Positions 6,351 through 52,479 of a stretch of DNA of 64,000 nucleotides are shown in pieces. Every line of letters starts with the position of its first letter. Positions within the stretch are counted from its first letter, which is position 1. Source of the DNA: an uncultured Gemmatimonadales bacterium (GTDB lineage Bacteria > Gemmatimonadota > Gemmatimonadetes > Gemmatimonadales > Gemmatimonadaceae); NCBI GenBank assembly GCA_963793305.1, contig CAWBZV010000002.1:859193-923192 (forward strand), written 5' to 3'. The notes under the pieces were generated by a model. The model worked only from the letters and a program-made list of their open reading frames with translations, made no database searches and was not told where the DNA came from. The position numbers and the translations under genes were made by a program.

Positions 6351-6366
6351 CGAGTTGAACAGAGAT

Positions 6367-6406: not shown

Positions 6407-6914
6407 GCGCACTGTGGGCCAGGATGCGACCTGCGATAACGACGGAAGCCATGAGAACCCCCACGGCAAATGTGCGGACCAACCCCGCCAGGCGCGTGTC
6501 GTAAGGAAGCATGTGCATGCTGTCCAGCAGGTAGTGCCAGTCGTGCAACGGGTCGTCGGAGAAGCCGACCAACTGCAGGGCCATGGTCCGCGCGTCGCCG
6601 ATGTAGTTCGCGAGATTCGTCAGGCTGTAGGCGAGCCATGTGCCGACGACGGCAACGCCATAGCGATCATCCTGGCGCAGCAGCATCAGGGCCGCGGCGA
6701 TGGGAGCCGCCACCTGAGTGACACTGCCGCCGGCGATGGTGAGCCACTGTCCGAACGGGCTGAAGAGCAGGTGACCGCCCTCGTGGATGGCGAGCGTCAG
6801 GCCGCCAAATACGTTCCACGTCTCGCTATCCACCATCGTGCGCACATCGCCCCATACGAGGGCTACGAGCAGCGTGACGCGTGGAAGGAGCCAACTCCAA
6901 CGGATCGTGGGCAT
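6375..6914 (-). CDS. membrane protein, M50-like metallopeptidase family
   Basis: HEGGH motif in a hydrophobic context and HDWHYLL motif; start taken at MPTIRW. Confidence 0.6.
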   Translation of the reverse strand: MPTIRWSWLLPRVTLLVALVWGDVRTMVDSETWNVFGGLTLAIHEGGHLLFSPFGQWLTIAGGSVTQVAAPIAAALMLLRQDDRYGVAVVGTWLAYSLTNLANYIGDARTMALQLVGFSDDPLHDWHYLLDSMHMLPYDTRLAGLVRTFAVGVLMASVVIAGRILAHSAQKTAEPTPRS

Positions 6915-6952
6915 CCTGATGGGACGACTACGACGGCGCCGAGGTCGCGCAT

Positions 6953-10334: not shown

Positions 10335-10408
10335 GGCAGGGTAGCTCAGCTGGTTAGAGCACGGCACTCATAATGCCGGGGTCGCGGGTTCGAGTCCCGC
10401 CCCTGCTA
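10335..10408 (+). tRNA. tRNA-Met (CAT), elongator type
   Basis: cloverleaf with anticodon arm CGGCA-CTCATAA-TGCCG and TTCGAG T-loop; resembles elongator tRNA-Met; integration target. Confidence 0.93.
10366..10408 (+). repeat. attL core, 43 bp
   Basis: identical to 32014-32056; begins at the anticodon loop. Confidence 0.95.
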
Positions 10409-10416
10409 CTTCCGAA

Positions 10417-10476: not shown

Positions 10477-10501
10477 CTTGGTACAAGAAATGGTACAAGA
10501 C
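10477..10501 (+). repeat. putative integrase arm-type site (tandem TGGTACAAGA), left end
   Basis: CTTGGTACAAGAAATGGTACAAGAC; 24/25 identical to 31905-31929. Confidence 0.75.
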
Positions 10502-12444: not shown

Positions 12445-13590
12445 TCAGCTGCCAGTGTGCGACACGTCGTGCGCCGCGGCGATTCGCTCCCACTTATCAC
12501 GCTCCTGCTGTGACGGCATGAATCGCCCATAGATCTTGAGCACGAGGATGGCGTTCGCGTGCCCGAGCTGGCGGGCGATGAGCTCTGCCGGCGTGCCGGC
12601 GCGGGCGGCGCGTACTGCGTACGAGTGCCGCTGGTCGTGGATACGGTAGTCCTCGATCCCGAGCGCCGTGCAGGCGGACTTGTGGTGATCCTGTGCGCGC
12701 CAGCGGTCGCAATGCGGGAATAGTGGCGCGTTCGGCGTCAGCAGCGCGCACTGTTTCTCGACGTAGGGCCACGCCCATTCGGCAACGCGCACGATTCGGT
12801 CGCGGGCGTGGGTCTTCGTGCCGGCCGCGCGAATCTCGCGGCGCGGGGCGTCAATGTCGCGGGCGCGCAGCGCGAGGGCGACCGAGACCTCGATCCCCGT
12901 GCCGCCGAGCAGCGCGGAGAGTGTCCGGTAAGGTGCCGGCTGGGCGTCGGCGAGGCGGATCAAATCCACGACTTCGAGCCAGCGACACCGCGGCGCAGCT
13001 GGTCGCGGAGCGCTAATGTCGCGCAACGGGTTTGCCGACAGCACGTGCCGGCGAACGAGATACCGGGCGAACTGTGACATCGCGGCGTGCGCCTTTCGCC
13101 GGGTGCCGGATTTCCCCTTGTAGTGGGCTAGCCAGTCTTCGAGTCTGGCTGCCGTGAACTCCGAGCGAGGAAAGGGCTTTCCCTCGGGCAGCAGGGTGCG
13201 GACGGCGAAGCGGTAGTGCGCCAGTGTGTCGGGCGCGACGTTCGGCGCATGTACTTCGAGCCAGGCGGCAATGTGGGGCTCGAGATCAACGTCGTTCAGG
13301 CGATCGCGTAGCGCGTCGACGCTCTGCGATCGGACCGCGTCGTAGAGATCGCCAACCGTCAGGCGATCGTCAGCCATGGCATTCAAGAGATCCCACTCGC
13401 GGCGGTCGACGAGCTGTCGCAGCGCGCGCTCGATCGCGCACGCCGTCGAGCGGTTGGGCGTACCGCTCGACTTCCGAACCGAGCCACCAGGTGTCGGTAG
13501 CTCAATGTACCAATGAGGGCGGTTCGGGCGACGAAAGGGCACGCGGTGAGAGAGAGTAGGAGGGGCGCAATTTAGCAACGCATCGCTCAT
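12445..13590 (-). CDS. tyrosine recombinase/integrase
   Basis: IHDQRHSYA (HxxR), QLGH and the IY catalytic Tyr; box I reads TGIEVSV, lacking the usual Arg. Confidence 0.9.
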   Translation of the reverse strand: MSDALLNCAPPTLSHRVPFRRPNRPHWYIELPTPGGSVRKSSGTPNRSTACAIERALRQLVDRREWDLLNAMADDRLTVGDLYDAVRSQSVDALRDRLNDVDLEPHIAAWLEVHAPNVAPDTLAHYRFAVRTLLPEGKPFPRSEFTAARLEDWLAHYKGKSGTRRKAHAAMSQFARYLVRRHVLSANPLRDISAPRPAAPRCRWLEVVDLIRLADAQPAPYRTLSALLGGTGIEVSVALALRARDIDAPRREIRAAGTKTHARDRIVRVAEWAWPYVEKQCALLTPNAPLFPHCDRWRAQDHHKSACTALGIEDYRIHDQRHSYAVRAARAGTPAELIARQLGHANAILVLKIYGRFMPSQQERDKWERIAAAHDVSHTGS

Positions 13591-18634: not shown

Positions 18635-18781
18635 GGGGCACGGAGCGGCTGCAAGGAGCGAAGCGACTTGCAGTCGCGGAGTGCCCCACCTCGCCGCCGC
18701 TAACAACTGCGAGGCCCGCGTCCGAAGGATGGGGGCCGGCTGCGGCTGACTGAACACGCAAAACGGGAGGTGGCTGCTCCA
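18635..18781 (+). repeat. 147-bp structured direct repeat, copy 1
   Basis: 136/147 identical to 21328-21474 by manual alignment; several stem-loops. Confidence 0.95.
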
Positions 18782-18915
18782 GCCGCGTCGCGCCAATCCT
18801 TTGCCGTTCGTTAGTTCGAGCCGGGGGGCGCGGGAGTCCCGAGATTGCGAAGCGCCCCCTTGTGCTGGCGCTTCAGAAGAGACCGTGGGAGCCGACGTTG
18901 GCTGAGTGCACCTTC

Positions 18916-20457
18916 TTAGTGCGGTAGACTCACAAGCCGCTCTTGGATATTCAGAAGAAATTGATGCAGATCAGTACCAGCGATATCGTCGAGAGTCATA
19001 GCTGATACGATATCGCGATTCCTACGTTTCGGATTGCAGCCGATTTGGCGCTCCACCAATGTGTCGGGATCCAGCCTGTCGATCTGAGATTGTATCCGGG
19101 ATCCCAGTACTCGGCGCAATGCCGACATGGAGAAGTAATTCTCTAAGGCCCTTCGCTGGAGACGATGTGCGTAAATCCCTGCCTTGTTGCATTGTTCCAT
19201 GAATTCAAGTCGCACTTTGTCGCTTTCCGGATCGCCATCGATGAGTGCGATGACATTGCGATTCTCGACGACAACGGTGAGGTCAAGTTGCAACATGGCG
19301 TCACCGCAGAGCGGCCACATCTTGATCAAGCACCGCTCCGGTAGTTGCATTTTGGCTAGAAAGGCCTCGAGCGCGGCCTTGTCACTTGGCCCTTCGACGA
19401 GCAGTAGGAGGTCTGCCACCAGATTGTCGGCGACCGAATACCCGAGATCGGTCAAAACTTTCGCCCTGCTCGTCTCATCGTTGACGACGATCTCGGCGTC
19501 AGAAGTGCAAAGGAAGACACGATCCACGTGCGCAATATCCAGGCACACGCTTGAGTGCGTTGTGAGAACGTATTGTTTATCAGTGCGCGAGCGGAGAAAA
19601 CCGAGCAAGCGCCGCTGAAGGTCGGGATGCAAATGACTCTCTGGTTCCTCGATGCACAGCACATCGATCGAGGGGTCCAGCGCGAAATACACTATCAAGA
19701 GGAGGTCCTGCAGGCCCAAACCGCAATCGTCAGCGTTGAGCGTCACGCCACGCGGACGCGATAGGCTGTCCGGCAGCGTAAACCGCAAATGCAGGAAATT
19801 TTGCCGATCGGGTGTAATCTCGACTGCGTGACCATCCGATAGTGCGCTAAATGCACCAACGACGTTGTTATAAAACTGCCGCTCATCGGAGTACTTATCT
19901 TGATTCAGTGAAAACGAAAGGGTATTGACGATACCGGAGCCAGCAGGATCGGGGGCAAGGCTGAAATTCAAGCTGTCGGTCGTCTTAAGTCGGCGCTTCG
20001 CTGGAAGCAGCTTAACTCTAGGCGGAGGCCCTACTAAAGACGGCCACGCGGTTCCCGCGACTGCAATCTGAAAGGGGTATTGAGTGAACAATGGGTGCCG
20101 GTTGTAACGCTCGGCAAAACCGCTAAACAGAATCCCATCGTCAGTCGCATACCAAATGCCTTCTCGATCCGCAACGGTGGCCTCAACCATTCGATCGAAT
20201 GGCTCCGTGTAGTTCGTGCTCATGCCCTGTGGCAGAGCGACTGCTTTACGTAGAGCGTCTCGCAATGCATTGAACTTAGAACCGCTAAAGGTCACGCCCC
20301 GCACGTTCTTAGTCTGGTCAGCTATGCATTCAACGATCGTGGATTTCCCACTGTTGTTGCGACCAGAAAGCACATTGATGCGGTCTAAGCTGCGGAGGAC
20401 TCCTTGATTGAGGCCCTTGTGAGGCCCAATGCGAATGTGCTCAAAATGGTTCGTCAT
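18916..20457 (-). CDS. OLD-family ABC-ATPase plus TOPRIM nuclease
   Basis: Walker A GRNNSGKST, Walker B IEEPESHLHP, TTHS H-loop, TOPRIM VEGPSD and DGD. Confidence 0.88.
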   Translation of the reverse strand: MTNHFEHIRIGPHKGLNQGVLRSLDRINVLSGRNNSGKSTIVECIADQTKNVRGVTFSGSKFNALRDALRKAVALPQGMSTNYTEPFDRMVEATVADREGIWYATDDGILFSGFAERYNRHPLFTQYPFQIAVAGTAWPSLVGPPPRVKLLPAKRRLKTTDSLNFSLAPDPAGSGIVNTLSFSLNQDKYSDERQFYNNVVGAFSALSDGHAVEITPDRQNFLHLRFTLPDSLSRPRGVTLNADDCGLGLQDLLLIVYFALDPSIDVLCIEEPESHLHPDLQRRLLGFLRSRTDKQYVLTTHSSVCLDIAHVDRVFLCTSDAEIVVNDETSRAKVLTDLGYSVADNLVADLLLLVEGPSDKAALEAFLAKMQLPERCLIKMWPLCGDAMLQLDLTVVVENRNVIALIDGDPESDKVRLEFMEQCNKAGIYAHRLQRRALENYFSMSALRRVLGSRIQSQIDRLDPDTLVERQIGCNPKRRNRDIVSAMTLDDIAGTDLHQFLLNIQERLVSLPH

Positions 20458-21327: not shown

Positions 21328-21474
21328 GGGGCACGGAGCGGCTGCAAGGAGCGAAGCGACTTGCAGGCGCGGAGTGCCCCGCCTCGCTGCCGCTCGCGAC
21401 TGCGAGGCCCGCGTCCGAAGGACGGGGGCCGGCCGCCGCTGACTGAACGCGCAAAATGGGAGGTGGCTGCTCCA
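21328..21474 (+). repeat. 147-bp structured direct repeat, copy 2
   Basis: starts 3 bp after the stop codon of 20743..21324. Confidence 0.95.
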
Positions 21475-21602
21475 CCTGCGCGTCAGGTCCCATGCGAGTC
21501 GTCGGACCGCGATTCGGCGCACTCCATTTCAGGTCCTATAGACCGATCGGCGCATAGCTCCGTCAGAACCCAGTATGCACACCTCTCTGGGTTCTCACTG
21601 AT

Positions 21603-23444
21603 ATGGCGCCTCCAGCTGTCGATACGCTCGAGGAGCGCCAGCTCTGGCTGCTGTTTGCGGCCGACGTAGTCTTTGCGGCGGGATGCGCGACGCAGTATTT
21701 CGCGTGGCGCTTGGAGTTTCACAGGAACCTTGGACATTGGCTGTTCGAGGCAACGCCGGATCAACGACATGCGCTGATCGCGTTGGCGGTCGCACTCGGG
21801 TTAGGCGCAGCCGCTACCCTGGCATCTGGCCGATGGTGGCGCGCTGCCCCCGCCTGCGCGTTGCTCGCAGTCGGTTGTGCTCTCGCCGGCCTCACCCCGA
21901 TCTATCCGCCGTACAACGTGGTCCTGTGGACTGTCGCGTATCACCGACACGCCCGACTGATCCCGATTGTGCGCCAGTCGCTAAGTGTGCTCGCGGCGTG
22001 CGCTGTCGCGGCGATCGGAGCAACCTTCGGCGTACGTCGAGGGCGGCGACCGAAATCGGTGTCGGACTCTTACGGCACGGCGCGGTGGGGTGACAGCGGC
22101 GACCTCGTACGCGAAGAGGGCCTGTGCATTGGGCGCGATGCGCGAGGCCGAGTGCTACGGTACTCCGGTGACGGACACCTAGTAACGATTGCTCCGACGC
22201 GGTCAGGCAAGGGCGTAGGCATCGTCATCCCGAACTTGCTCACGTACCCAGGACCGATCGTCGTCACCGATCCAAAAGGCGAGAACTACGCGGTCACAGG
22301 AGCTCGTCGCCGCACGATGGGCGTGCCGGTACACGCGTTCGACCCTTTCGACGTTGCCGGCGGTCGCGCGGGCTTCAACCCGCTTGATCTCATCAAGGCG
22401 GATGCGGACGAGGCCAACGACGAGTCCTGGGGCATCGCCGATATGTTAGTGGTTTCTGACGATCGAGGGCAGGAGCAAGCATTCTGGGACCGAGAGGCGA
22501 AGGCCATGCTCGCGGGGTTGGTCCTGTACGTGGTCGCGCACGAGGAGGGACCACAGCGTACGCTGGCCAGGGTTCGCGCCCTGCTGTCAACCACGCCTGA
22601 GCAGTTCGAAGGCTTGCTCAAAGACATGACGTCGAGCTCCGCGGCGCACGGCCTTGTCGCTCGGCACGCGAACCAGATGCTGAGCATGGAGACGAGACTC
22701 CTGTCCAACGTGATAACGGCGGCGCGCAGTCATGTGCACTTTCTTGATAGCCCGGCGATCGCCAAGATCACTGGAACGTCGACTGTCGATCTGCGCTCCA
22801 TTGTGAATGAGCGGGCGAGCGTCTATTTGATCGTGCCGCCGGAGCGCATACAGACACATTGCGCCTGGCTGCGCCTGATGATCGCCTCGGCCCTGCGGTG
22901 CGCGATGAGCTCAAGGCGGCGGCCCGAGGTTCGCCCACTCTTCTTGCTCGACGAATTCGCGAACCTTGGACGCATGACGCCCGTTGAAGATGCGATCTCG
23001 CTCGCTGCCGGATACGGCATCACGTTCTGGCTGCTGGTTCAGGATCTTGGGCAGCTGCGCCACGCGTACGGTGACGGTGCGTCGTCATTTCTGTCGAACT
23101 CCGATGTCCTTCAGGCGTTCGGCGTGACCGACTTCGCGACGGCTGAGCATCTCTCGCGGCTCGCCGGCGAGCAGACGGTTATTGCAACCAGCGAGAGCCG
23201 CAGCTCAGGCGTGACGCGAGGCCGGAGCGGAAGCTCGCAGGAAGGGGCAGGGGAGACGGTGTCCGAGCATGCGCGGCGGTTGATCACGGCCGACGAGGTG
23301 CGGCGAATGCCGGCTTGGGAGCAGCTGCTGTTCCTGCGTTCACGCGCGCCGATCAAGGTCGCGCGATTGGACTACAGGCTAGACCGGGAGTTCGCGGGGT
23401 TGGCGGCACCGAATCCGCTCTTTCGACCAAGTCCACAGAGCTAA
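21603..23444 (+). CDS. virD4: type IV coupling protein VirD4/TraG family
   Basis: N-terminal TMs, YGTARW, APTRSGKG, TDPKGE, LLDEFANLG and QDLGQL motifs. Confidence 0.92.
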   Translation: MAPPAVDTLEERQLWLLFAADVVFAAGCATQYFAWRLEFHRNLGHWLFEATPDQRHALIALAVALGLGAAATLASGRWWRAAPACALLAVGCALAGLTPIYPPYNVVLWTVAYHRHARLIPIVRQSLSVLAACAVAAIGATFGVRRGRRPKSVSDSYGTARWGDSGDLVREEGLCIGRDARGRVLRYSGDGHLVTIAPTRSGKGVGIVIPNLLTYPGPIVVTDPKGENYAVTGARRRTMGVPVHAFDPFDVAGGRAGFNPLDLIKADADEANDESWGIADMLVVSDDRGQEQAFWDREAKAMLAGLVLYVVAHEEGPQRTLARVRALLSTTPEQFEGLLKDMTSSSAAHGLVARHANQMLSMETRLLSNVITAARSHVHFLDSPAIAKITGTSTVDLRSIVNERASVYLIVPPERIQTHCAWLRLMIASALRCAMSSRRRPEVRPLFLLDEFANLGRMTPVEDAISLAAGYGITFWLLVQDLGQLRHAYGDGASSFLSNSDVLQAFGVTDFATAEHLSRLAGEQTVIATSESRSSGVTRGRSGSSQEGAGETVSEHARRLITADEVRRMPAWEQLLFLRSRAPIKVARLDYRLDREFAGLAAPNPLFRPSPQS

Positions 23445-23491
23445 CCTGACAGCGGCGCTTAAGCTCGGTGCCGAAACATGGTTTTTGTCTG

Positions 23492-24382
23492 CTACTGCTT
23501 TATACCCAGCCGGAATAAGAGAATTGCCACCAGTACGGCAGCTGCAAAGCCGAGCAGCGTCTTCACCCATTCTTCTCGAAGTGACGATTTGGTTTGCTCC
23601 CAGATCGTTGGTGCCGCGCCTTTAGTGCAGAACAGGTCGTACCCGAGCTTGTGCACAATGCCTGCGGGCGAATGAGGATCGCTGGATGAGCCAAGCCAAT
23701 CCTTCTTAAGCACGGCGACGAGATCCAGAGCTTCGTGCTCGACACCATTCCGACGGGCGATATCTCGGCAGTACGAGCAGAGAAACGCCTGTAAGGCTTT
23801 GTAGCGCACATTGACCAGCCTGTCATTAAAGTCTCCGACGCACCCTTTGGTGCCGATGTGTGACTGTCCTCCCTCATTCCGTGGAGAGATGACAAATAGG
23901 GCATCGCGGATCAGGAGGGTCAGGATGAATTCCAAGAGCGATGGTGGCGCCATATAACGCTGCCAATCACCGAGAAATATTCCCGTGACCGCTCCGATGT
24001 TCGCGAGGTAATACTGATTCGAGAGTTTCGCTAAGGACACGATGACGATATGCGGAGGCCAAGTTTCTGAAAGGTCGTACTGAGCGTTGATTTCATCGCG
24101 GGCTTTTCTCAGACGCAGCACGAGGCCGACCATGTCTTGTTCACATGATGACCACTCAATGCGGGCGTTGGGCTTGAGTCGAGCGACGAGGGGATCGTTC
24201 GTGGCATCAAGAAGTTCGAACTCCACATGAGGCTGGAGCGTATTGAGATGCAGAATCAGATATTCAAGCGCAGCCACGCGCAGGCGTCCCAAATCAGCGA
24301 GCACCACTCCGATGCGGGCAGGTGTGCGCATGCCGGAGGAGGCGTGAGGATCCCGAGGAATATCGTACTGCACCGTGGTCAT
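23492..24382 (-). CDS. hypothetical protein with Cys/His cluster and C-terminal TM
   Basis: SHIGTKGCVGDF...FLCSYC resembles the zincin/archaemetzincin Cys cluster but there is no HExxH. Confidence 0.55.
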   Translation of the reverse strand: MTTVQYDIPRDPHASSGMRTPARIGVVLADLGRLRVAALEYLILHLNTLQPHVEFELLDATNDPLVARLKPNARIEWSSCEQDMVGLVLRLRKARDEINAQYDLSETWPPHIVIVSLAKLSNQYYLANIGAVTGIFLGDWQRYMAPPSLLEFILTLLIRDALFVISPRNEGGQSHIGTKGCVGDFNDRLVNVRYKALQAFLCSYCRDIARRNGVEHEALDLVAVLKKDWLGSSSDPHSPAGIVHKLGYDLFCTKGAAPTIWEQTKSSLREEWVKTLLGFAAAVLVAILLFRLGIKQ

Positions 24383-24572
24383 ATCAGCTCTCTCTTAAGT
24401 TGCGAATGAGCGGTGGGCGCTTTAGGGCCCGGAATCTTGCGGGCAATAGAAAACGCGCACTCGTGGTCCCTGGTCGAGACCCCATAGTGCACGGGGAGAT
24501 GCGCTAAGGCAACGACGATCACATCGACAGCCGAAAAGGTCTGGTGGCTATCGGCCGTATGTGGTGAGATGG

Positions 24573-25931
24573 CTATCGTTCGCGATCGCCGAGCGTGTCG
24601 CCCATAGCGCGACCGATCTCCTTAATTGGCAGAGGAATCGTCTGCGTCAGACTCCGGGCCGGAGACTCGGGAGAGAGACGGGTTACGAGCTCGCTGGTTC
24701 TTTCGCGTAACGTCGCGATCCCATTGCGCACGGCGTCTACGGAGGCATCTGGTTGAAGATCCAGTAGGTCCCGGACTTGACGCCTGTGGCCGAGCCACTC
24801 GCGCGCCAGGCTCGCAGCCTCAGTGGCGGCGGTGCGCGCGGGCGTGTCGTCTCTCGTGCTCCACAGGCCAAAGAGGTGCTTACGCTCGGCCTGCACCAAT
24901 GTCCCGAACTGCTCGGGGTGACCGCGCAACGTATCAACGGCCCGCTCATCGCCATGCTCGGCGGCGTGGCCTGAGAATGCGAGGGCGGCCGATTGTGAGT
25001 CAACGTACGTGTCGCCCAACGCCCGGCCGACGTTTGCGGCGCTGCGCTCAGCGCGCTGAAGGGCCCATTCCGCGTGACGTAGGCGTTGCTTGGCCCCGTC
25101 GATCTCTCGCTCGACTTCAAAGGGTGACCGGCTGGGCTCCTTGTCCTTCGACAACTCCGGTGAGACTTCCGCGGTGTAGGGGCCAAGTCGGGATTCGAGT
25201 CGAGAGAGGGAGACATTGGCCGCCAGGCTCGAGGCTTTCGTTCGAGATGTCCCGTCGCTGAGCACCAGACCGTGAGCCCGGCGCTCCAACTCGAGCCCGT
25301 GTGCGCGAAGGTGGTCGCGCAGCTCGCCCCACGACTGGGCGGAACGAATTTCCGGCAGTAGTGAGCGAAGGCGCGTTGCGAGGTCGCGATCTGTGGCTGT
25401 TCGATCGTGAGATTGCTCCCTCGCCTGTGCGAGCGGGACGGCGCGATCAGCCAGGCGTTGGTCGCGCTCGACGACCCGGCGGAGGCCGAATTCGACTTCG
25501 ACCTCCGCCAAGACCCGATCCAGGACCGCGCGATCCTGCCAACGATCCCAAGCCGCGAAGGTCTCGGGGTGGATCCGGTTCACGAGAGCATGGACGTGCT
25601 GATGCTCGCGATCGTGATGCGCGACTAGTACCGTTTGGTGTTCGGCCAATCCGAGCTCCGACAGGACCCGGTCGGCAACCTGCTCCATCAGCTCCCGCGT
25701 CGGGTTGTCCTCCGGAGCGAAGCTGAGACTGAGTTGGTAGGCGGGAGCGTCGACGCGACGATTCTGGCCCGCCGTAGCTTGCATCAGATCCGCGGAGAGG
25801 TGCGGGTCATCCGTGACGAGGTTCCGCGATGAGGTCCAGGCAACGCGGGCCGGGTCGACTCCACGCTCTCTTCCCGCCAGGTACCTCGCGATGCGTGCGA
25901 ATGATCGCCCGGTCCTTGTCCTGGCGATCAC
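24573..25931 (-). CDS. relaxase, MOB_P/VirD2-like
   Basis: N-terminal Tyr (IARYL), YQLSLSF and HHDREHQHVH HUH motif. Confidence 0.92.
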   Translation of the reverse strand: MIARTRTGRSFARIARYLAGRERGVDPARVAWTSSRNLVTDDPHLSADLMQATAGQNRRVDAPAYQLSLSFAPEDNPTRELMEQVADRVLSELGLAEHQTVLVAHHDREHQHVHALVNRIHPETFAAWDRWQDRAVLDRVLAEVEVEFGLRRVVERDQRLADRAVPLAQAREQSHDRTATDRDLATRLRSLLPEIRSAQSWGELRDHLRAHGLELERRAHGLVLSDGTSRTKASSLAANVSLSRLESRLGPYTAEVSPELSKDKEPSRSPFEVEREIDGAKQRLRHAEWALQRAERSAANVGRALGDTYVDSQSAALAFSGHAAEHGDERAVDTLRGHPEQFGTLVQAERKHLFGLWSTRDDTPARTAATEAASLAREWLGHRRQVRDLLDLQPDASVDAVRNGIATLRERTSELVTRLSPESPARSLTQTIPLPIKEIGRAMGDTLGDRER

Positions 25932-26245
25932 GAACTACGGTGCTCAGTCGTGAGCTGCTGAAGAACGGATACCAGTTCGCCGAGGACGCGCTCGGCGCGC
26001 AGCCGGGTTGCGGAATCAGCCCCGGAGCGGGCAATTGCCTTGAGGTCAGCGCCAATCGCTCCGAGCGAGTGCAGCAGCTCCGGGCTTGCAAGGTTGCAAG
26101 GGGCCGGTGGCGCCGCGCCCGTTAGGCCGGCATTCCGTAAGTAGCGCGCCGGCAGCTGCCCGGCGGCTTTGGCGCGCTGCTCAATCTCCGTGAATTCCTC
26201 GGGCGTGAGGCGAACCAGCTTGGAACGCGTACGGCGGGCGGGCAA
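25928..26245 (-). CDS. mobC: mobilization accessory protein MobC (RHH)
   Basis: VRLTPEEF...RYLR and LGAIGADLKAIAR (variant of IGNNLNQIAR); overlaps the relaxase start. Confidence 0.8.
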   Translation of the reverse strand: MPARRTRSKLVRLTPEEFTEIEQRAKAAGQLPARYLRNAGLTGAAPPAPCNLASPELLHSLGAIGADLKAIARSGADSATRLRAERVLGELVSVLQQLTTEHRSS

Positions 26246-26530: not shown

Positions 26531-27563
26531 GTGATTTTGTTGACTATCACAATCCCGTACGAGCGCGTTGTCGCTGAGTTCTACGCGGCCAAGCCGCCGC
26601 ACATTTTACTCGGCAACGGTTTTAGCCGTGCTTGTCGCGATGATATTTTCGACTACGGTGCGCTGTTTGATCGGGCGGACTTCTCGAGCCTCTCACCAAG
26701 CGCGAGAAGTTCCTTCGATGCACTTACGACGACTGATTTTGAAGTAGTGATGCGAGCACTGCGAAATGCTTCGGCACTAGTACGTCTGTACTCACGAGAG
26801 TCCACAACTCTGATCTCGCAGCTCGAGGAGGACGCGAACGGACTTCGGGAGGTCTTGGTCAAGGCCATTGCCGAGAGTCATCCGGAGCAGCCAGCTGAGG
26901 TTGCTGACGAGGCGTACTCAGCTTGTCGCCGGTTTCTAGTGCCCTTTAAGCACATTCTATACTCTGAATTATGACTTGTTGCTTTACTGGGCGTTGATGC
27001 ACAACGACGTTGACCCTGCAATCAAGTTTGACGATGGATTCCGGACTCCAACTGGCGGGCCGCAGGAGTACGTCACTTGGGACATTGAGAACACAAATCG
27101 GCAGACGCTCTTCTACCTCCATGGCGCGCTGCATCTCTTCGACGGCGGGGATGAGTTGCAGAAGTACACCTGGATCAACACCGGAGTGCGGTTGATAGAA
27201 CAGGTCCGTCGTGCGCTAGCAGCGAACCTATACCCTTTGTTCGTGGCGGAAGGAGAGAGCGCCCAAAAAATGGATCGTATCAGACACAGCGATTTCTTGT
27301 CTCGCAGTCTACGAAGTTTCGCTAACATCTCAGGCACGCTCGTAGTATACGGCCACTCGTTCGCGCCCAACGACGAGCACGTCATAAGGCTGATCGAAAG
27401 GGGTAAGGTGGCGACGATACTCGTCAGTCTGTACGGCGACCCCGACTCATCGGACAATAGGGCCATTGTCGCGCGAGTGAATCGCATGCAAGCTGCCAGA
27501 CATCGAAGTCGGCCGCTTGAAACCGTCTTTTTTGATGCCGCCACGGCCAAAGTGTGGGGATAG
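26531..27563 (+). CDS. DUF4917 family protein (SIR2-like fold; frameshift near 26960)
   Basis: LLGNGFS, TLNYDLLLYW across the frameshift, YLHGALH and YGHSF..ND.H motifs. Confidence 0.85.
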
Positions 27564-27666: not shown

Positions 27667-28317
27667 ATGACTCTCATTGTAGCCAAGTTGGTCGGAGACG
27701 ATTATCTCATCGCCGGCGCGGACTCCCGCCTGACGAGCGGGGATGGCAATTCCAACCGTGACGGGGTTGTCAAGCTTTTCCTCGTAGGAGCGCAGCCGGA
27801 TCAGTTTGCGATTACGGCTCGTGGTGACTTCGTGAGCTTCTTGCCGAGCTGGACGTCAACATCACTCAATATTGGTGGGTGGCTGGCCGAATGGACGGGG
27901 CGAATGAGAGACGACCATCGTTCAATGGATATGCAGCTCGCAGTGCTTCAATCGGAGTTGGCGGTACCGCTTGCCAATGCAGAGTCCAAACGTTGTGGCG
28001 AGTTGATCGCGCTGGGATGGGTGTCTGGCGGACTGCAGGCAAGAGTCGTGCAGGTCAGACAGCATAGCGACGGGCCACCAGAATTCGTAGTGCAACCAAG
28101 TCCAGGCTTGACCAGAGGGTGTGTGTGCAAGTGGCCTCCGACTCAAGCGATCTTATGCGAGGCGGAAGGCACGATTATCGACGTGACCACCATGCGAGGG
28201 TATATCGCGAAGCAAGCGCGATCAGATCGCACAGGCCTCATAAGCCAGGATCCACAACAAACGACGGTTGTGGAGTTGTGGCCTGGCCGTAGTGTCTTTC
28301 ACGATCTGAGCCTCTGA
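27667..28317 (+). CDS. Ntn-hydrolase / proteasome-beta-like protein
   Basis: M-T-LIVA start (putative Thr1 nucleophile), AGADSRLT, and Lys in VVKLF. Confidence 0.55.
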   Translation: MTLIVAKLVGDDYLIAGADSRLTSGDGNSNRDGVVKLFLVGAQPDQFAITARGDFVSFLPSWTSTSLNIGGWLAEWTGRMRDDHRSMDMQLAVLQSELAVPLANAESKRCGELIALGWVSGGLQARVVQVRQHSDGPPEFVVQPSPGLTRGCVCKWPPTQAILCEAEGTIIDVTTMRGYIAKQARSDRTGLISQDPQQTTVVELWPGRSVFHDLSL

Positions 28318-28376: not shown

Positions 28377-29648
28377 GTGCGGTACAAGAGATGGTGCAAG
28401 GCTTTTGCTTCAGGACGGCTCTTCTCGACGCCTCGCCGGAAGTCGCGACACGAGGATGGTGCAGTAGGGATTTTGCAGATATGGCCGAAGCCTAGTCCTG
28501 GCCACTGGTTCGGACCCTGGCAGACGACGTTACACTTCCACACGGGGCTTACTCTTAGGGAACTCAATTTGGAGCGGCTTGCCACGGTGCCAGGTGAAGT
28601 TCTATCGCAATCGAGAATGGAAGACGCTGAATGGGATCGGGCCGTTCTTGGTGAGAGCTTTGAACTATATGAGCGGCTCATGCGTGGCGAGGTGCCCAAA
28701 CGGCTCGAGGTGCCGGAGCTCTCGCCGCTTCCGCAGATCCTGCTCGCTAACGCAATCGGCAACGTTGACATGCCGATCACGAGCAATCTTCACACGATCG
28801 GTAGGGCGTCGAGCGGCGCAAACTCCATTCTGTCAACTGCCATTGGCCGGTATCGGGGCGAGGAACAACTACCCATCCCTTGGCTCACGCACGCTCCCGA
28901 GTCTTCATGGGCGATTGTGAATGCCCTTTATTTGGCTCAACTGACAGCGCGTTTTGATGATAGTGTTTCCGTACTGCTGCACTTCGCGAATGCCACAGGT
29001 ACTCTGTCGTCTCTGCAACGTCAGCAGTTGAATGGCCTTCTGTTTCATCCCCTCCAGAATGCAGATCAACATGGTCGGCATGCGGATCCGAAGCGTACAT
29101 TCGCCGGCGTATCCGCGCGGATAGTTAGCGGTCCTGAGCCTGAGACGCCGAGTATCACGGAATACCTAGCAGCGTTGGACGCGACGTGGCCGGCTCGACC
29201 TCATAGTCGGCGCGAGATGCTTGAGCTAATCGTACATGACAATGGACTGGGCATCGCGGCGCATTTCTACAACGCCACGCGTAAGCCCGGAGACCCTGAT
29301 TTCAACGATCTGTCTCTTTTCGGTGAATGGCAACGGCTGAATAACGCCTTCGAAAGACATCAGACGAGTAAGCGGGTGACCTTCCGCAGAGCGACTGGAA
29401 CGCTGGCGATGCCTGGGGTAGGCCTGGCCGGATTGCTCAACGCCACGAAGCAGCTGCGGGCATTTCTTGAACTTCGAACTGGCCGGCTGCGCGCATTTCA
29501 GTGGTACCGAGCCGATGATGTGATCGCTGACCGGAACCTGCTCCGCCCGGACGGACTTCCGGCGGCAGCGCCCCGGCTTGTCGGAACCATTTTCCGCTTC
29601 TTTGTGCCGCTTTATGGTCCCAGCGATGCGGTTAGGTCCGTGGAGTGA
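28377..29648 (+). CDS. GHKL / histidine-kinase-like ATPase (start uncertain)
   Basis: N-box LQNADQHG, G1 VHDNGLGI, F-box AFERHQTSK, G2 PGVGL; no HisKA or sensor domain evident. Confidence 0.75.
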   Translation: MRYKRWCKAFASGRLFSTPRRKSRHEDGAVGILQIWPKPSPGHWFGPWQTTLHFHTGLTLRELNLERLATVPGEVLSQSRMEDAEWDRAVLGESFELYERLMRGEVPKRLEVPELSPLPQILLANAIGNVDMPITSNLHTIGRASSGANSILSTAIGRYRGEEQLPIPWLTHAPESSWAIVNALYLAQLTARFDDSVSVLLHFANATGTLSSLQRQQLNGLLFHPLQNADQHGRHADPKRTFAGVSARIVSGPEPETPSITEYLAALDATWPARPHSRREMLELIVHDNGLGIAAHFYNATRKPGDPDFNDLSLFGEWQRLNNAFERHQTSKRVTFRRATGTLAMPGVGLAGLLNATKQLRAFLELRTGRLRAFQWYRADDVIADRNLLRPDGLPAAAPRLVGTIFRFFVPLYGPSDAVRSVE

Positions 29649-31854
29649 GCGCCGAGCTTCTCTACGCTCGGTTTGGGCTGCGCGAGACTCGGATCTATGC
29701 AAGTTCATGGTCCGATCCGGCCAGGCGCGTGCTTGTATTCGACGTAAACGGAGATATTCGCACGCCCACTCTACGCGATCGACTTCTTTCCCTTGAACTC
29801 AGTAGACAGCTAGACCACGTAGTACTTCGCGGAGTTTCAGAATACCTGGAAGCGGACATACTTACTGGAGACGGTCGCCGCGAGCTGGCCGATCGTTTTG
29901 GCAGTGCGGCTGTGTCGGTCGTCGATAGAACTGATTCCCGAAAGCTTCAAGCCGTTGTACTACAGGGACCGATAGACGAGGAAACTGCGCGTTCGTTGTT
30001 GACGCTGAGTGCGCAGGCTGAGGTGGAAGCCGCACTCGCTTGGAGCAACGCGATTTGGTCCGACTCATCCCACCATTTTATTGTGCCATCCGGCCACCAC
30101 GCCGACAAGTTCGTTCGGGTCGCGGCCGTGTTCGCAGAGGCAACAAATGTCCTTCGGATAGCGGACTGGGTTGAGCACAGAGCGGCGCCGCCCTGCGTAT
30201 TAGTAGCCGACACATATACTTTGCTGCCGCTGTTGCAAGAGATTCAACTGCAATGGATGCGACGGGCGAGAGTAGAGCTTCCACGATTCATACTGCCGCT
30301 CTACGGAGAACCCAGCGACAGTGTACGAGATCGGCTAGCTGAGATTGTGCCGATCGCCCGCGACTCGGGCGCCCAGATCTTGGCTTTAGTCAGTGTTACG
30401 GCGACGGGTGGGTACGTTGCCGCGCTGCAAGAGGGCCTCAAATCATTTGCGGAGCAGCCAGCGCTTGATGTGTGCGCCGTGTGCGCAACCCTGGGCGAAG
30501 GGCCTTTGTCTCTCGATTCTGCCTTGTGTCGGATACCGAGCAAGAGCTTCCCTGATCGTGCCTCCTGTGAGATGTGTCAGGTCAAGCATTCCACTCCGAT
30601 TCCCATCGACCAACATCACTTCACTACTCGTCTCGGCACCCATGTTCTGACGCTTCCTAAAGCGCCAGCGTTAGAGAACGTGGCGTTAGTTATTCGCGAC
30701 GCCGATCAGTACGGCGCCCTTCGAGTGCATGTGGGTCGCAGCGATCGACACGGACACCTGGCAATATTCATCGATACCGCCCAGCTCCTGAAAAGCAAAG
30801 TATTTCAAGCGATCGCCACGGTTGGCTTCTATAAGGCGTGTACGGGCTTCACGCCGGACCTTGTGCTAATGCCATCGCATGACGGCACTGAAGCCGTCCG
30901 AGATTGGATTACCGAACATACGCGTGCACCCATTGAGGTCGTCTCTGAAGGTCGGAGTATGGGGGACCTTGACGACCGAATCCGACGTGCGCGCCGAATC
31001 TTAATTGTCGATGATGCTGTTATCTCAGGAAGGACGCTAATAGGGCTTCTTGAGCGCGTACAGCGAGCGAAGGCGGCCGCGATGGACACCGATTACCAGA
31101 TTCGCGGCCTGATACTGATAGCCCGTCCCGCGTATTCGACCGTTTGGCAAGGGCTTGTCGATCGCTTTTATATCAACAAACAGTATTGCCTAACTGGTGC
31201 TTGGGAGTTGAGACTGCCAGATATTGTCTCAGGCGGTCGCAATGCCTGCCCTTGGTGCGTCGAGTTGCGGTGGTTGCGCAGTGCTCTACCCGGCTGTCCT
31301 GACAGCGCCCGTCCGTACATCGAAAGTCGGATCAGGCGCCTTGAAGACTCGAACGGACTCAATGAGCGACTCTACCTTGGCACAGAGAATGCGCCCGAAT
31401 ATGCCGAGGCCAACGGATGGGATCCCAGCGTGCATACGACGCCCGGATCATATCTCGGCGATCTTTCGATGTGGGTGCATTCGTCGGCGCCTCAGCGTCT
31501 CTTCAAGCCATGCGAGATGAATGGAATTCCGACGCAAGGCGTTGGTCGATGAAGAGCGCCCTTCCGTTAGCTAAAGCGCTGCAGCGTTTTACGGATCCGG
31601 TAATAGTCGCTGCACTCCTGCGGGGAGTAGCCGCAGCGGAGCTCGCGTGTGAAGAAAATGAAGCCGAGTTGCCTCACGTCCTTGAGCGAATGGCGAACAA
31701 CTCACTCGAGCCCATGCTAGCCGCAGAGGTCTTGTCAGCAGAGCAGCAACGCAAGCTGCCGCGTGGAGTATCCACAGCGGCCTTTCGTGGGGCTTTGACG
31801 AAGTTTTCACCTGAAACGTGCGCCGGCCTGGAGTATTTGCTGGGAGATAAGTGA
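29645..31854 (+). CDS. tandem phosphoribosyltransferase-fold protein (frameshift near 31465)
   Basis: HFIVPSGHHADKF plus degenerate LVSVTATGG; second domain has intact ILIVDDAVISGRT; CEMC and CPWC motifs; C-terminus in ORF 31417..31854. Confidence 0.75.
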
Positions 31855-31904: not shown

Positions 31905-31929
31905 CTTGGTACAAGAGATGGTACAAGAC
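31905..31929 (+). repeat. putative integrase arm-type site, right end
   Basis: CTTGGTACAAGAGATGGTACAAGAC. Confidence 0.75.
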
Positions 31930-32013: not shown

Positions 32014-32056
32014 ACTCATAATGCCGGGGTCGCGGGTTCGAGTCCCGCCCCTGCTA
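32014..32056 (+). repeat. attR core, 43 bp
   Basis: ACTCATAATGCCGGGGTCGCGGGTTCGAGTCCCGCCCCTGCTA, identical to the tRNA-Met 3' half. Confidence 0.95.
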
Positions 32057-47620: not shown

Positions 47621-48214
47621 CAGCTTTTGCGGGCGCGCATTCCGTGAACCGAGTGTTTGATCGTTCCCCGAACTATAACGCAACGCGAAACTCATCCCCC
47701 CGTCCACACTGAAGCTCGTTTCTCCGCAAAAGAGCGTGACGCCGTCGCAAAACGGAGAAGCGAGTGAGGCGCGCCCCCAAAGCGATTCGTAGATCGCGCG
47801 CCGCATGCCGCAGAGCTGCACGATGATTGCGACAATTCGCGTTAAATGCCGGTTAAGTGGGCCGGGGCGCGCGTCGCGCGCTCGATCCAATTTTCGCCAC
47901 AGGCCTTACCCGGCGCCGGTGGCCAGGCGCCATCGCCAACGCGCCGATAGCGGCAGCGAGCGATAGTCCGATCAGCTTGTGCATGTGCTGATTCTCCCCG
48001 TGATTTCCCCAAAGACCGCGCGGATTAGAGACCGGCGCAAAGGCGAAATTAGAGCATTGCAGCGGCGAATTTTGGCAATTGCGGAACCGGTGCCGTGCAT
48101 CGCCTCATTTACCAAACCGCTCGCTCGGCGGTGCGATTTCGGTAACCAGATCGCGAATGAGCGTCTTGTTCGGCAGCGGCGTGAGCGTCATGGCGCGCGG
48201 CTCGAGGCGGGCGA

Positions 48215-48920
48215 GGAAGCCAAAGCATCGTTGGAAAAACACTCGCTTCAGATGCCGATGCTGTGCTGTTCTCCTGATTTCACCGAGCCTGATGCCGATT
48301 TGCTCGAGAAGGAAATTTCTCGCGAAAAGCGTATGATCGAGATTACCGCTTTCTTTGGTGGACGCTTCTGCCGTGTCCTCTCCGGCCAACGGCGGCCAGA
48401 AGTGTCAATCGAGGCCGGTATTGCTCAAGTCGTCCGAGTCATTAAGAGCCTGCTACCACATGCGCAGGAGCATGGTGTAGTTCTCTCGATGGAAAACCAC
48501 TATAAAGATAGTTATTGGCGCTATCCGGAATTTGCCCAAAAGATGGATATCTTCACTGCCATCATCGGACAGATCGATTCTCCATGGTTTGGCATTAACT
48601 ATGATCCCTCGAATACCATTCTTGCCGGGGAGGACCCGTTAGAAATGCTCGATCGTGTGAAGCATCGAGTGGTCTCAATGCATGCCAGTGACCGGTATCT
48701 GAACAGTGGTACGCTGGAAGATCTCCGAAGGGAGGAAGATGCTGTCGGTTATGCCAGCCGCCTCTGACATGGGATAATCGGGCATGGACTCAATGATTAT
48801 GACAAAATATTTGCGACGTTAAATTCGGTCGGGTTTTCCTCTTGGATCTCAATCGAGGACGGGATGAATGGCATTGAGGATATGTGCGAATCTGTCCGCT
48901 TTCTGAAGGAAAAAATTTGA
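48215..48920 (+). pseudogene. 5'-truncated sugar phosphate isomerase/epimerase (TIM barrel)
   Basis: MENH, NYDPSN, SMHASD and SIED motifs; in-frame TGA at 48765; N-terminus missing. Confidence 0.75.
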
Positions 48921-49005
48921 CCGGCATTTCACGGATTAGAATCTTTGGCCTCTCAGGACATCGGCAGACGCACGGCATCCAGCATTCTCTCGCAAGGTTT
49001 TGCGG

Positions 49006-50491
49006 TCAATCTTTCCAGTGGGTCCGTACGATTAGATTCTCGGTGAATATAATCCGGTCAGGCACTTTATATTCGGGCAGATGCAGGTCCGCAAATTCGA
49101 TCAGTTGTCGTTCCGTTACCGGGGTGCCGCCCTGCTTGAGAACCACGTATGCCTGCGTTAACTCGTGACCAAATTTGTCCGGCACTCCTACGACGGCGGC
49201 CTCCCGAACTGACGGATGCTGATACAACACCCCTTCGACTTCAATGGGCGACACCAAGCCAGCCTCGTGTTTGATGATCTCCGATTTGCGGCTCACGAAC
49301 CAGTAAGAACCCTCTTCGTCCTTATAAGCTAGGTCGCCGGTGTGAAACCATCCTTCCCTTATATTCCGAGTAGTTAATTGCAGATCCCTCCAGTAACCGG
49401 AGGTCATACTTCCTCCGCGGACAATCATCTCACCGATTTCGCCGGCTTTCGAAATCGGGCGCCCGAAATCATCAATCAGAGAAAGCTCCATGCCAGCGAT
49501 AGGTCTGCCAATAGAGCCGATCTTTTTTTTGCCATACGGGGGGTTCATGCAGTAGATCTGAAGCTCAGTCATCCCGCAGCCCTCTGTGATTTCGACGCCA
49601 AATATTCGATTGAATCGTTCCTGGACGGCGACGGGAATCGCTTCACCGGCGGAGAAACAAAAATCGAGCGACCGAACGCTGTACCGGCCGGCTTCCGGGC
49701 AGTTAACTAGTTCGTTGTACAGCTTCGGGAAGCCATACGTTTTGGTCGGTTTATGAGTTTGTATCGTTTCAAGAGCCAGACGCGGCTCAAAATAAGGCAG
49801 CAGGACACATGTGGCGGCGCAGCTGTGAAATGGCAAAATCTGCGAACCAAAACCGATCAAATAGCATATCGGGAACATGATCAGCGTCGTGTCATCAGGT
49901 GAAATTGCAATCTGGGCGAATCTGGATTTGGGTAGCTCGCGCCAAGCTCGCGTGGGAATGGACTACCGCCTTCGGCAGGCCGGTTGTGCCCGATGTATAA
50001 TAAATCGCCGCCGCACTGTTCTCTTCGACCACCGGCAGAAGAGCCGTTTCACATGACGCCTTGAGTAATTCATCAAATGGCCGGACTCCACCGACTTCCG
50101 AGGCACGACAAGTCAGGTAATATTGTTCGACTCCCGCCAGCGATGGTCTGATCTCTTCAATCTTTGCGAACAGTTCCGGTTCACTAATGAGAACACGCGC
50201 CCCGCTGTGTGTGAGTCCATACTTCAGGAGTGCGGCCTGAAAGCGAATGTTAAGCGGTACAGCGATTGCGCCAATTTTGAAGCAGGCATAGTAGCACAAC
50301 ACTATTTCCAGGCAGTTTGGCAACAGAAATGCGACTCGATCCCCTGGACTGATTCCTCGCTGCAACAGTGAGGCTGCCAATGATTTTGTGAGCCGGCAGA
50401 GCTCCGCGTAGGTGTAAGTATTGTGCTCAAAAATCAAACCGACGTTGTGCGGTGACTTGGCGGCAACTTTGTCCAAAAGGAGATTCAGCAT
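49006..50491 (-). CDS. AMP-dependent acyl-CoA synthetase (frameshifted)
   Basis: YTSGTTGLPK, GMTE and FHTGD motifs split over two ORFs. Confidence 0.88.
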
Positions 50492-50517
50492 CGGAGGAGG
50501 TTGTCAGTTGCCAGTTG

Positions 50518-51111
50518 TCAGTGCAAGTGCACCAGAGTTCCGGCGAGCGTCACGTCGACGTCCACGATTTTATCCACGCGCAGGACAAGGTTGCTCGGGT
50601 CTTTCATTCCCCAGGCGACGTATGGAACGCTAAACTTGGCTGTCGCCGTCACGAGGTCGTTTTGCACTTGACCCTGACGGGGATCGTCATGTCGTGTTCG
50701 CCGCCATGGATGCGCAGAGAACCGTGGACTTCGACTTGCGATTCACCAAGCGAAGCAAGTCGACCCTTTAGATGGTCGGGAGAGAAAGACCGCTTCAGGA
50801 AAGCGATTGGACTCCAGAACATTTTCATGCATTTGCCGGTCACGCGCTTTTTCTCCGGTTTCTCCACTTCTCACATCGACGGTGATTTGACCGCTAGCCT
50901 GGCCGGTGGCCGGGTCGAAACGGACGGTCCCGTCCTTGACTTGGAAAGTCCCGCGCACAGTGTGAAGAAGAGCGCCCAACGTAAATCGGACTGTACACTT
51001 CGCAGCATTAAACTCGATTTCAACCAAGCCGGTGGAAGAAGCCGGATTTTCAGCCGCAATCGAAGGGCGACAGAGGCACATCAGCAGGAACGCCAATAAA
51101 CGAACGGTCAT
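50518..51111 (-). CDS. YceI family protein (frameshifted)
   Basis: signal peptide, HTVRGTF, RDRQMHENVLE. Confidence 0.8.
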
Positions 51112-51121
51112 GGAAGAAGTG

Positions 51122-51313
51122 GCCAGTGTCAGTTGTCAATGTCAGTTGCCAGTGGAAGAGACCTACGGCTCAAGCTTTGAGTTTCAAATATTGATGCACA
51201 ATCCAGCTAGTCTTTGGCTGGCGGTACTTTCGATCTCATTCCTGCTCACTACAATAGGTCTCAAACCTTCCACTCTTACCAACACTGACAATTGACACTG
51301 ACAACTGACAACT
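51122..51313. repeat. inverted-repeat element with heptamer (CTGACAA) arms, MITE-like
   Basis: TGTCAGTTGTCAATGTCAGTTG...TGGAAGAGACCTA / TAGGTCTC...CTTCCA...CTGACAATTGACACTGACAACTGACA. Confidence 0.55.
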
Positions 51314-51317
51314 CCTC

Positions 51318-52266
51318 CTATGCGAGAAACTCCACGCTGCGCGACTCATACCACGGCCGGATGTTGCGTGCCGAATCGATGAATCCAACGTGACCGCCCC
51401 ACTCAGGAGCTTCGAAGAATAAGTGGGGGTTCTTTTCCGCTTCTGCATATGGGAACGATTCCGGGGTGAGAAAAGGATCGTCTCGCGCGTTCAGGAGAAG
51501 CACAGGGACTCTGATGCGATCCAGATATTGTCTCGCACTCGATTTCTGCCAATAGTCCATCGCATCGCGAAAACCGTGGATGGGTGCCGTGTATAGATCG
51601 TCGAATTCTCGCAACGTTCGGATCAGATGGCTCCGGCTGGCATCCAACTGCTCCGGGAAGAGTAACGCTTTCGCCTCTACTTTCGGCACGAGTCTGCCGA
51701 GAAACCGCCGAAGATAAAGGCGGTTGCTCCAACGACGGTCAATGGCGTCGGCACTAGCCGCGAGATCGATCGGTACCGAAACCGCAATTCCAGCGATTAC
51801 TGCGGGATGGCAGGCCCCTTCCCCGAGATATTTCAGCGTCACGTTTCCGCCGAGGCTGAATCCTATGAGCGCGATCCGCTGGGTACTTCGCCGCTGCGAG
51901 TGCGATTACGGCGCCTAAATCGCCCGTTTCACCGCTGTGGTAAGATCGCGCGAGACGATTTGATTCCGCCCGCATCCGCGGAAATTCCATGCCAGTACAT
52001 CCCATCCTGTCGCCTGGAGGTGAGTTGCCATCCCGCGGATACAGCGATCCTCAGAGGATCCTTCCAACCCGTGGGAAAGAATTGCTAGTCTGTCTCCGCC
52101 CGATATTGCCCAATCGAGGTCGAGAAAATCGCCGTCTGCAAGTTCCAATCGCTCCTGCGGAATACGACCGGGAGTCGCCGGCGCAAGAGCGCCGGCAGAA
52201 TGGTTTGCAAATGGCCGTTCCGTAGGAAGAAGAAGGGGGGTGAAAAAGAGAAGCAACGACGGGCAT
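51318..52266 (-). CDS. YheT-like alpha/beta hydrolase (multiple frameshifts)
   Basis: DGDFLDLDW, HGLEGSS, NFRGC, YHSGETGDL, GFSLGGN, NARDDPF and GGHVGF motifs. Confidence 0.85.
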
Positions 52267-52479
52267 TGTCTTAAGACGAATTTGCGGTGGCGCAAATCGA
52301 ATGTAAATACCACCCCGTACGTCGGAGAAAAGCGTTGCACCAAAAGCGCAGATTCTCGGCCAATTCTGGATCTGGGGGTGTCGGCGCTTCGCCCCATGAG
52401 TGATGCAGCATAGGCCCCCCGTGCCGAGCAGACTTACCCTTCTCTGGACTTAGGTGGGGCGTCGTTGGCCGCACTGACC

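Follow-up and report, generated by a model that had tools for sequence, protein, structure and literature searches.

A tightly coupled GHKL ATPase and double PRTase-fold gene pair on an integrated element of a Gemmatimonadales genome: a candidate anti-phage module related to PDC-M65

The analysis concerns a 64,000-nucleotide stretch, hereafter the window, of contig CAWBZV010000002.1 (positions 859,193 to 923,192, assembly GCA_963793305.1) of an uncultured Gemmatimonadales bacterium, and within it two genes that come last among the cargo of a 21.7-kb element, which is integrated at a tRNA-Met gene. Gene 1 (protein A) encodes an ATPase of the GHKL superfamily, and gene 2 (protein B) encodes a protein with two phosphoribosyltransferase (PRTase) folds. 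The original prediction, based on the sequence alone, had described the pair as a candidate nucleotide-targeting defence system. The motifs on which it relied are present in the sequence, i.e., the GTGA in which the stop of gene 1 overlaps the start of gene 2 (29645-29648), the boxes QNADQHG, DNGLG and GVGL of gene 1, and LVSVTATGG, IVDDAVISGRT and a CxxC after each PRTase fold of gene 2. We consider it fairly probable that the pair is a mobile two-gene anti-phage module, as far as the defence role alone is concerned. The features of the two genes are listed below (PRPP, phosphoribosyl pyrophosphate; DD, the acidic pair of the PRPP loop).

28587-29648 (+): gene 1 (A), GHKL ATPase of about 353 amino acids (alternative start TTG 28569), its N-terminal part helical, its ATP-binding domain similar to those of SpoIIAB and CheA
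29046-29075 (+): N-box HPLQNADQHG, its Asn invariant in 26/26 aligned family kinases
29238-29252 (+): G1 box DNGLG, DxGxG invariant in 26/26 aligned family kinases
29415-29426 (+): G2 box GVGL, seen in the sequence
29645-31854 (+): gene 2 (B), about 736 amino acids if the break is bridged; an alpha/beta domain at the N terminus (about 1-110), then PRTase folds 1 and 2, each followed by a CxxC, and a C-terminal domain of helices
30074-30118 (+): domain-1 hood motif HFIVPSGHHADKFVR (H144, H152, R158), the family signature according to the alignment
30386-30412 (+): non-canonical PRPP loop of domain 1, LVSVTATGG; carboxylates absent, phosphate-binding S/T-G kept
30566-30577 (+): CxxC 1, CEMC (C308/C311), kept in 37/37 locus proteins
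31004-31036 (+): PRPP loop of domain 2 in canonical form, IVDDAVISGRT; this branch retains the DD, which PDC-M65 proper and other branches have lost
31247-31258 (+): CxxC 2, CPWC, kept in about 14/37 locus proteins
31466-31471 (+): frameshift of one base in the assembled sequence, probably introduced by the assembly (judged from homologues and the assembly-wide frameshift rate)

The longest open reading frame (ORF) of gene 1 starts at 28377, and the gene had been predicted from that position. This start is almost certainly wrong and was rejected as unsupported by the homologues, ten of which (274-394 amino acids) start near TTG 28569 or GTG 28587, so that the protein has 353-359 amino acids and not 423. 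The features of the GHKL superfamily (N box, DxGxG, GxG and the Bergerat fold) are all present. The usual Glu of the N box, found in 22/26 family kinases, is replaced by His, as in CheA. As had been predicted, searches of Pfam and NCBIfam gave no HisKA, sensor or receiver family in gene 1; the DHp and Hpt domains of two-component systems were likewise missing from these searches, and a receiver gene is not recurrent beside the homologous pairs.

By sequence, the family profile of gene 1 matches CheA (E 8e-5) and SpoIIAB (E 0.003). The AlphaFold2 model (confidence score pLDDT 77; 11 sequences in the alignment) had no Foldseek match at E <= 0.001, and the list was headed by CheA and histidine-kinase domains. 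A wider structural aligner placed SpoIIAB first (Z 8.8, root mean square deviation 4.1, 136 residues aligned), in a tie with the ATP-binding domains of histidine kinases (Z 8.1-8.5), with RsbW (Z 7.8) and CheA also among the matches; these Z values are middling, and the top rows are nearly all GHKL proteins. The fold comparison thus bears out the proposed SpoIIAB/RsbW-type ATPase. Gene 1 shares with these anti-sigma serine kinases a GHKL ATP-binding fold that stands alone and has no His-acceptor domain. Unlike them, it is 2.5 times larger, with inserts, and neither a sigma factor nor a demonstrable STAS partner was found at the pair.

The structure of gene 2 was assessed on the model of an intact homologue, 55% identical to it (pLDDT 93.8, 132 sequences in the alignment). 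Residues 125-319 of the homologue form a type I PRTase fold (Z 10.2 to orotate phosphoribosyltransferase, OPRTase) and residues 350-533, approximately, a second one (Z 11-12), flanked by an alpha/beta domain on the N-terminal side and a helical tail on the C-terminal side. Both domains have the PRT core and the hood, which confirms the two type I PRTase folds expected in gene 2. Only domain 2 has the acidic pair of the PRPP loop (D456, D457), while domain 1 has V-S. The two halves are related to each other in HHalign (84%, E 7e-6) and stem from a duplication.

Several other assignments for gene 2 were tried. The N-terminal domain of B as a STAS substrate is unsupported, as its comparison with only four STAS sequences gave 0.1% in HHalign, no STAS entry occurred among the fold matches listed and the candidate Ser is kept in 27/128 sequences; the best matches of this domain in the Atlas search reached only 0.75. 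In the Atlas, a cluster of 1962 members (score 0.92) bears the automatic name 'putative DNA helicase', which was rejected, with no helicase support in Pfam and PDB sequence searches. The viral fold search returned only matches of the OPRTase/uridine monophosphate synthase type and noise. The predicted complex of A with residues 1-600 of B scored 0.00, which is no answer and weighs neither way. The PRTase-CE systems (Pfam PF24390) were reportedly described by Nicastro et al. in 2023; PF24390 has no match in the window, and two relatives reach 15-16 bits against a cut-off of 27.

The gene 2 profile retrieved 1111 representatives at E <= 0.001, the weak tail of which may include ordinary PRTases, and 333 at E <= 1e-30. 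The family has no Pfam or NCBIfam name, and the models of the predicted defence system PDC-M65 miss most of it. In total, 45 loci were examined (two plasmid regions, 21 metagenome loci and 22 genome loci), and 44 of them contain a gene 2 homologue. Of the 38 gene 2 loci having at least 600 bp upstream, 37 have a GHKL gene as the immediate upstream neighbour, on the same strand; this count includes three duplicate locus pairs and relies on a kinase profile for which 26 of these genes were selected by their position. Gene 2 is broken in L075, the sole locus without the upstream GHKL gene. Moreover, five near homologues each of A and B lie on contigs of equal size. The homologues are thus conserved as a pair, a point on which the original prediction had been made to depend.

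The records of the family come from actinobacterial, proteobacterial, myxobacterial, Gemmatimonadota, Gemmatales, Bacteroidota and chlamydial genomes. An intact pair (379 and 756 amino acids, both annotated as hypothetical) is carried by plasmid pHG1 of Cupriavidus necator H16, a laboratory strain (L003, 1-11821; genes H16_RS32265 and H16_RS35355), and the pair proteins of L068 and L076 are identical although the records differ. A search of 400 other genomes from the phylum of the host did not find the pair; the matches of the B profile in 82 other genomes of the phylum, which were short, fell on ordinary PRTase loops and had an E of 6e-6 or weaker, were rejected as homologues. Nothing was found by locus scans of genome and metagenome contigs with the close kinase alignment, in three scans of viral contigs or by tblastn of phage records with a PDC-M65B member.

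By profile comparison, both proteins share descent with PDC-M65, and the pair is a remote branch of that lineage, one in which the DD is kept. The gene 2 family profile gives an alignment of 652 columns with true PDC-M65B members (HHalign 99.85%, E 1e-30), and gene 1 one of 178 columns with PDC-M65A members, in the ATPase domain only (95.4%, E 2e-8). Three of the loci, L074, L080 and L082, are true PDC-M65 members (E 1e-43 to 1e-143) with the same A-then-B order as in the window, and in the FastTree tree (midpoint root, long branches) they form one clade nested among the relatives of the window gene. The two systems agree in the order and the size of their genes (the models have 398 and 763 positions), in the domain-1 motifs and in CxxC 1. 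They differ in that the loop is VASC, VSSC or VASS and CxxC 2 is missing in PDC-M65B members, whereas the branch of the window has VDDA and CxxC 2. Direct matching is weak and not well-covering: in the PADLOC check proposed by the original prediction, A of the window matched the PDC-M65A hidden Markov model (HMM) at E 0.077, and B matched the PDC-M65B HMM at E 2.9e-7 over 37/763 positions, and it is the profile comparison that gives the homology.

The PDC systems are themselves predictions, made from their embedding in BREX, DISARM or restriction-modification (RM) loci, according to the accessible part of the source (Payne et al., bioRxiv 10.1101/2024.01.29.577857). M65 is absent from the main text of 10.1101/2024.01.29.577857; this statement covers the main text as distinct from supplementary Tables S3-8, which may annotate PDC-M65. 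PDC systems were defined inside BREX, DISARM or type I RM loci, while the copy in the window stands at the end of an integrative element and its relatives stand beside RM or BREX genes. The literature search found no paper naming 'PDC-M65' or dealing with this pair. The original prediction had matched the pair to no named and characterised system. The first half of this statement has to be changed, as the named candidate PDC-M65 is homologous; the second half holds, as PDC-M65 is not characterised.

The conservation of the two PRTase domains was compared in 132 representatives, which are biased to the branch of the window, and in 37 distinct long locus proteins, which remained of the 44 once three rows had been dropped as short, two as duplicate and two as broken or truncated. 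The acidic pair of domain 2 is kept in 122/132 representatives and in 14/37 locus proteins. The other 23/37 have no acid at either position; they include PDC-M65 proper and several actinobacterial and myxobacterial records, and CxxC 2 is lost along with the acids. In domain 1, D195, G261, C314 and C317 (homologue numbering), all of which lie outside the pattern used in the locus search, are kept in 37/37 locus proteins and in 127-132 of the 132 representatives. The two domain-1 His residues, which lie inside the search pattern, are kept in 131/132 representatives. Domain 1, formerly called degenerate, is therefore the constrained one, since D195, G261 and the CxxC occur in 37/37 proteins and the DD in 14/37.

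These counts bear on the original version of the mechanism, in which domain 2, as a catalytic PRTase, is the toxin and acts by draining PRPP or producing aberrant nucleotides, domain 1 senses nucleotides, the kinase is the gate, and the branches without the DD have another output. The DD of the window and of 122/132 representatives, the better structural matches of domain 2 to PRTases (Z 11-12) and the precedents of ShosT and Retron-Eco11 would all suit such a toxin. However, 23/37 locus proteins, the three true PDC-M65B members included, have neither acid and yet keep the partner and the architecture. The division into an intact toxin domain and a degenerate sensor domain thus fits the family poorly, with domain 1 constant in 37/37, but it could still hold for the branch that keeps the DD; we regard this version as rather unlikely.

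The frameshift noted near 31465 in a gene of about 735 codons is indeed present in the assembly, and the full protein would have about 736 amino acids. The span 29645-31854 measures 2210 nucleotides, one base short of a whole frame, and the frame changes between GDLS and DVGAF, at about 31466-31471; the seven nearest homologues (685-774 amino acids) read through. Frameshifts were counted with 204 ORFs of a complete genome of the same family, 51 of which have clear orthologues in this assembly, and 6/51 of these conserved orthologues (about 12%, or about one per 10 kb) are frameshifted. The frameshift of gene 2 is for this reason probably an assembly error, and any split gene of this genome calls for caution.

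Whatever the function of the family, this copy could be a real pseudogene without its last 128 residues, given that the frameshift stands in the assembly and the DUF4917 gene of the same element is split too. We hold this to be unlikely: besides the frameshifted orthologues elsewhere in the assembly, the identity to the nearest homologue is about equal on both sides of the break (56% before it, 57% after it), and the frame of the tail has no stop codons. Against the other six homologues, the identity of the tail is 0-10 points lower, and those six show a mixed pattern among themselves.

The features of the integrated element outside the pair are as follows.

10335-10409 (+): tRNA-Met(CAT), left end of the element
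12445-13590 (-): tyrosine recombinase of the element (E 6e-17, below the curated cut-off)
18916-20457 (-): cargo, ABC-ATPase-TOPRIM (OLD/GajA-like) gene
21603-26245: mobilisation genes, i.e., type IV coupling protein (21603-23444), relaxase (24573-25931) and NikA/MobC (25928-26245)
26531-27563 (+): cargo, DUF4917/PDC-S21 gene, split in two frames, with a weak SIR2 match
32014-32056 (+): right end of the element, a 43-nucleotide exact duplicate of the 3' end of the tRNA (10366-10408), 160 nucleotides past gene 2

The duplicate of the tRNA 3' end 160 nucleotides downstream of gene 2 places the pair at the right end of the element, as had been predicted. A 25-nucleotide motif with an internal GGTACAAGA repeat occurs just inside both ends (10477-10501 and 31905-31929) and likely represents the arm sites of the integrase; a weaker third copy about 190 nucleotides upstream of gene 1 (28378-28402) may mark where the element ended earlier or a regulatory site. 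The pair is immediately preceded by a 216-amino-acid ORF (27667-28317, +) starting with MTLIVA...GADSR, which had no match in Pfam, PADLOC or NCBIfam and is not a regular neighbour at related loci; we presume from its motif a resemblance to Ntn/proteasome-beta proteases. A 153-nucleotide direct repeat (92%) at 18635-18787 and 21328-21480 surrounds the OLD-like ATPase gene and a membrane protein gene and is possibly a cassette boundary.

To characterise the surroundings of the homologous pairs, neighbours were called in 30 loci and in the annotated pHG1 region (31 in all); 135/165 predicted neighbours were scanned with Pfam and 44 hand-picked proteins with PADLOC. Defence genes occur within about 6 kb in 12/31 loci and toxin-antitoxin genes in three more. 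The defence neighbours comprise AVAST with AbiJ, Wadjet, RM systems of types I, III and ISP, BrxC, ShosTA with SEFIR, CapP, Schlafen, HNH with a methylase, and PDC-S15. On pHG1, the pair (L003) adjoins AVAST type 1 and an AbiJ-domain gene. In L068, ShosTA and a SEFIR/TIR gene (5494-7085, 2232-3755) stand directly upstream of the pair, and two PRTase-type modules thus lie side by side. Integrases, transposases or relaxases are found near several homologous pairs.

As a control, 20 evenly spaced 13.5-kb stretches of one genome were analysed (130/134 ORFs scanned). Five of them had a PADLOC match at E <= 1e-30, of which one is a clear defence locus and four are generic families. With one clear case in the 20 control stretches against 12/31 loci, the relatives of the pair do often stand beside defence genes; this and the mobile location are in line with the original prediction. 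The enrichment is suggestive, not rigorous.

The same neighbourhoods bear on two further explanations. The pair could be a non-toxic signalling system in which B, a nucleotide-sensing regulator resembling PurR or PyrR, forms a partner switch with A and governs genes that belong to the element or island. PRT folds act as sensors in PurR and PyrR, both of which are among the matches, A resembles anti-sigma kinases and the catalytic carboxylates are often lost. On the other hand, no DNA-binding domain, sigma factor or response regulator is recurrent beside the pairs at the 31 loci, there is no STAS signal and defence neighbours are enriched, which makes such a regulator quite unlikely. A housekeeping role was rejected in agreement with the original prediction, as no purine/pyrimidine biosynthetic operon recurs among the neighbours called at the 31 loci. 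An accessory enzyme that acts on thymidine or deoxynucleotide pools, or in base modification, together with the nucleotide enzymes adjoining the pair in 4/31 loci (ThyX in L040, 2994-3929, and L041, 435-1322; ThyA in L052, 4081-4977; deoxynucleoside kinase in L082, 4019-4648), is improbable, as these enzymes vary by locus and 27/31 loci and the window have no such neighbour.

A role of the pair in phage defence can be compared with that of known PRTase systems. PRTase-fold proteins are required for phage defence by Retron-Eco11 (PMC12746101), Ophion (10.1101/2025.09.30.679545) and DS-32 (10.1101/2025.01.08.631726), according to the excerpts of these reports; the PRTase of Retron-Eco11 depletes PRPP (PMC12746101), and the toxicity of ShosT requires PRPP binding (PMC12961424), as given in the available parts of both papers. 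ShosTA (PMC11961720, PMC12961424) and PsyrTA resemble the pair in having two genes and a PRTase-type protein, described in the excerpts as an anti-phage toxin that disturbs nucleotide metabolism. Their partner is DprA-like, whereas that of the window is a GHKL protein, and ShosT combines a hydrolase with one PRTase domain, whereas B has two PRT folds with CxxC. The PADLOC scan of the window proteins gave no ShosT match, and their relatives reach only E ~1e-3 at the PRPP loop. In the excerpts on retron III-A, Ophion and DS-32, neither a GHKL gate nor a tandem PRT fold is described, unlike in the window pair. A reverse transcriptase, as in retron III-A, was not found among the scanned flanking ORFs, and the radical-SAM/PHP or NADAR partner of Ophion- or DS-32-type systems is absent at the pair. 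The literature search found no anti-phage PRTase that is GHKL-gated or has a double PRT fold.

The mechanism that we propose, tentatively, is that of a GHKL-gated double-PRTase effector that disturbs nucleotide metabolism and in which domain 1 is essential. Protein A would keep B switched off. It would bind ATP, because the N and the DxGxG are invariant in 26/26 kinases, and it may work like SpoIIAB or RsbW, as a serine kinase or as an ATP/ADP-dependent captor of B, because it has no His-acceptor or sensor domain. Infection would release B. Domain 1, the predicted essential site in spite of its non-canonical loop, would bind a phosphorylated ligand via the S/T-G loop, two His, Arg, Asp and the Zn-type CxxC. 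Domain 2 would be a variable PRPP or nucleotide pocket, canonical and PRPP-binding in this branch and dispensable in others. The released B would upset the nucleotide or PRPP supply and halt the cell, and the outcome would be abortive infection or dormancy, by analogy with the ShosT and retron III-A PRTases. A bolder form of this proposal, which we think unlikely as it stands, assigns to domain 1 an active site of a novel type within the PRTase fold (a phosphate loop without carboxylates, surrounded by two His, Arg, Asp and a Zn-type CxxC) that makes or destroys a nucleotide under a sensorless GHKL kinase.

A number of observations weigh against the defence role or the proposed mechanism. At the raw PADLOC threshold, 5/20 control stretches compare with 11/31 test loci, in which only the 44 hand-picked proteins were scanned, and the control was drawn from one genome only. 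Altogether 19/31 loci have no defence neighbour, and a copy on a Pantoea plasmid, outside the 31 loci, stands amid metabolic genes. The locus set was found via the hood motif of domain 1 and may favour the conservation of that domain, while domain 2 may be catalytic in this branch because the DD is kept in 122/132 representatives. An acidic PRPP loop is required in the defence PRTases known so far and is missing from domain 1. Neither a conserved phospho-acceptor serine nor a likeness to STAS was found in the N-terminal domain of B, and the literature search found no phenotype for any member of the family.

Elsewhere in the window, a second tRNA-Met gene (2981-3054) has its 3' end duplicated about 3.3 kb downstream (3012-3110 and 6306-6404), which suggests a small separate integrated islet. 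The stretch 48001-61000 has a low GC content (52-56% against about 63%) and is probably another island. The promoter scan gave 0 sites against 1.9 expected.

Two facts limit the value of the finding: the lineage has already been catalogued as a candidate, and the present copy is frameshifted in the assembly. PRTase-fold toxins, such as those of ShosT, retron III-A, Ophion and DS-32, are an emerging class of anti-phage effectors. If the bolder reading of domain 1 is true, its active site would define widespread kinase-gated nucleotide immune effectors, far beyond the reach of the PDC-M65 models, and the canonical PRTase domain would be an optional module of the family, lost more than once.

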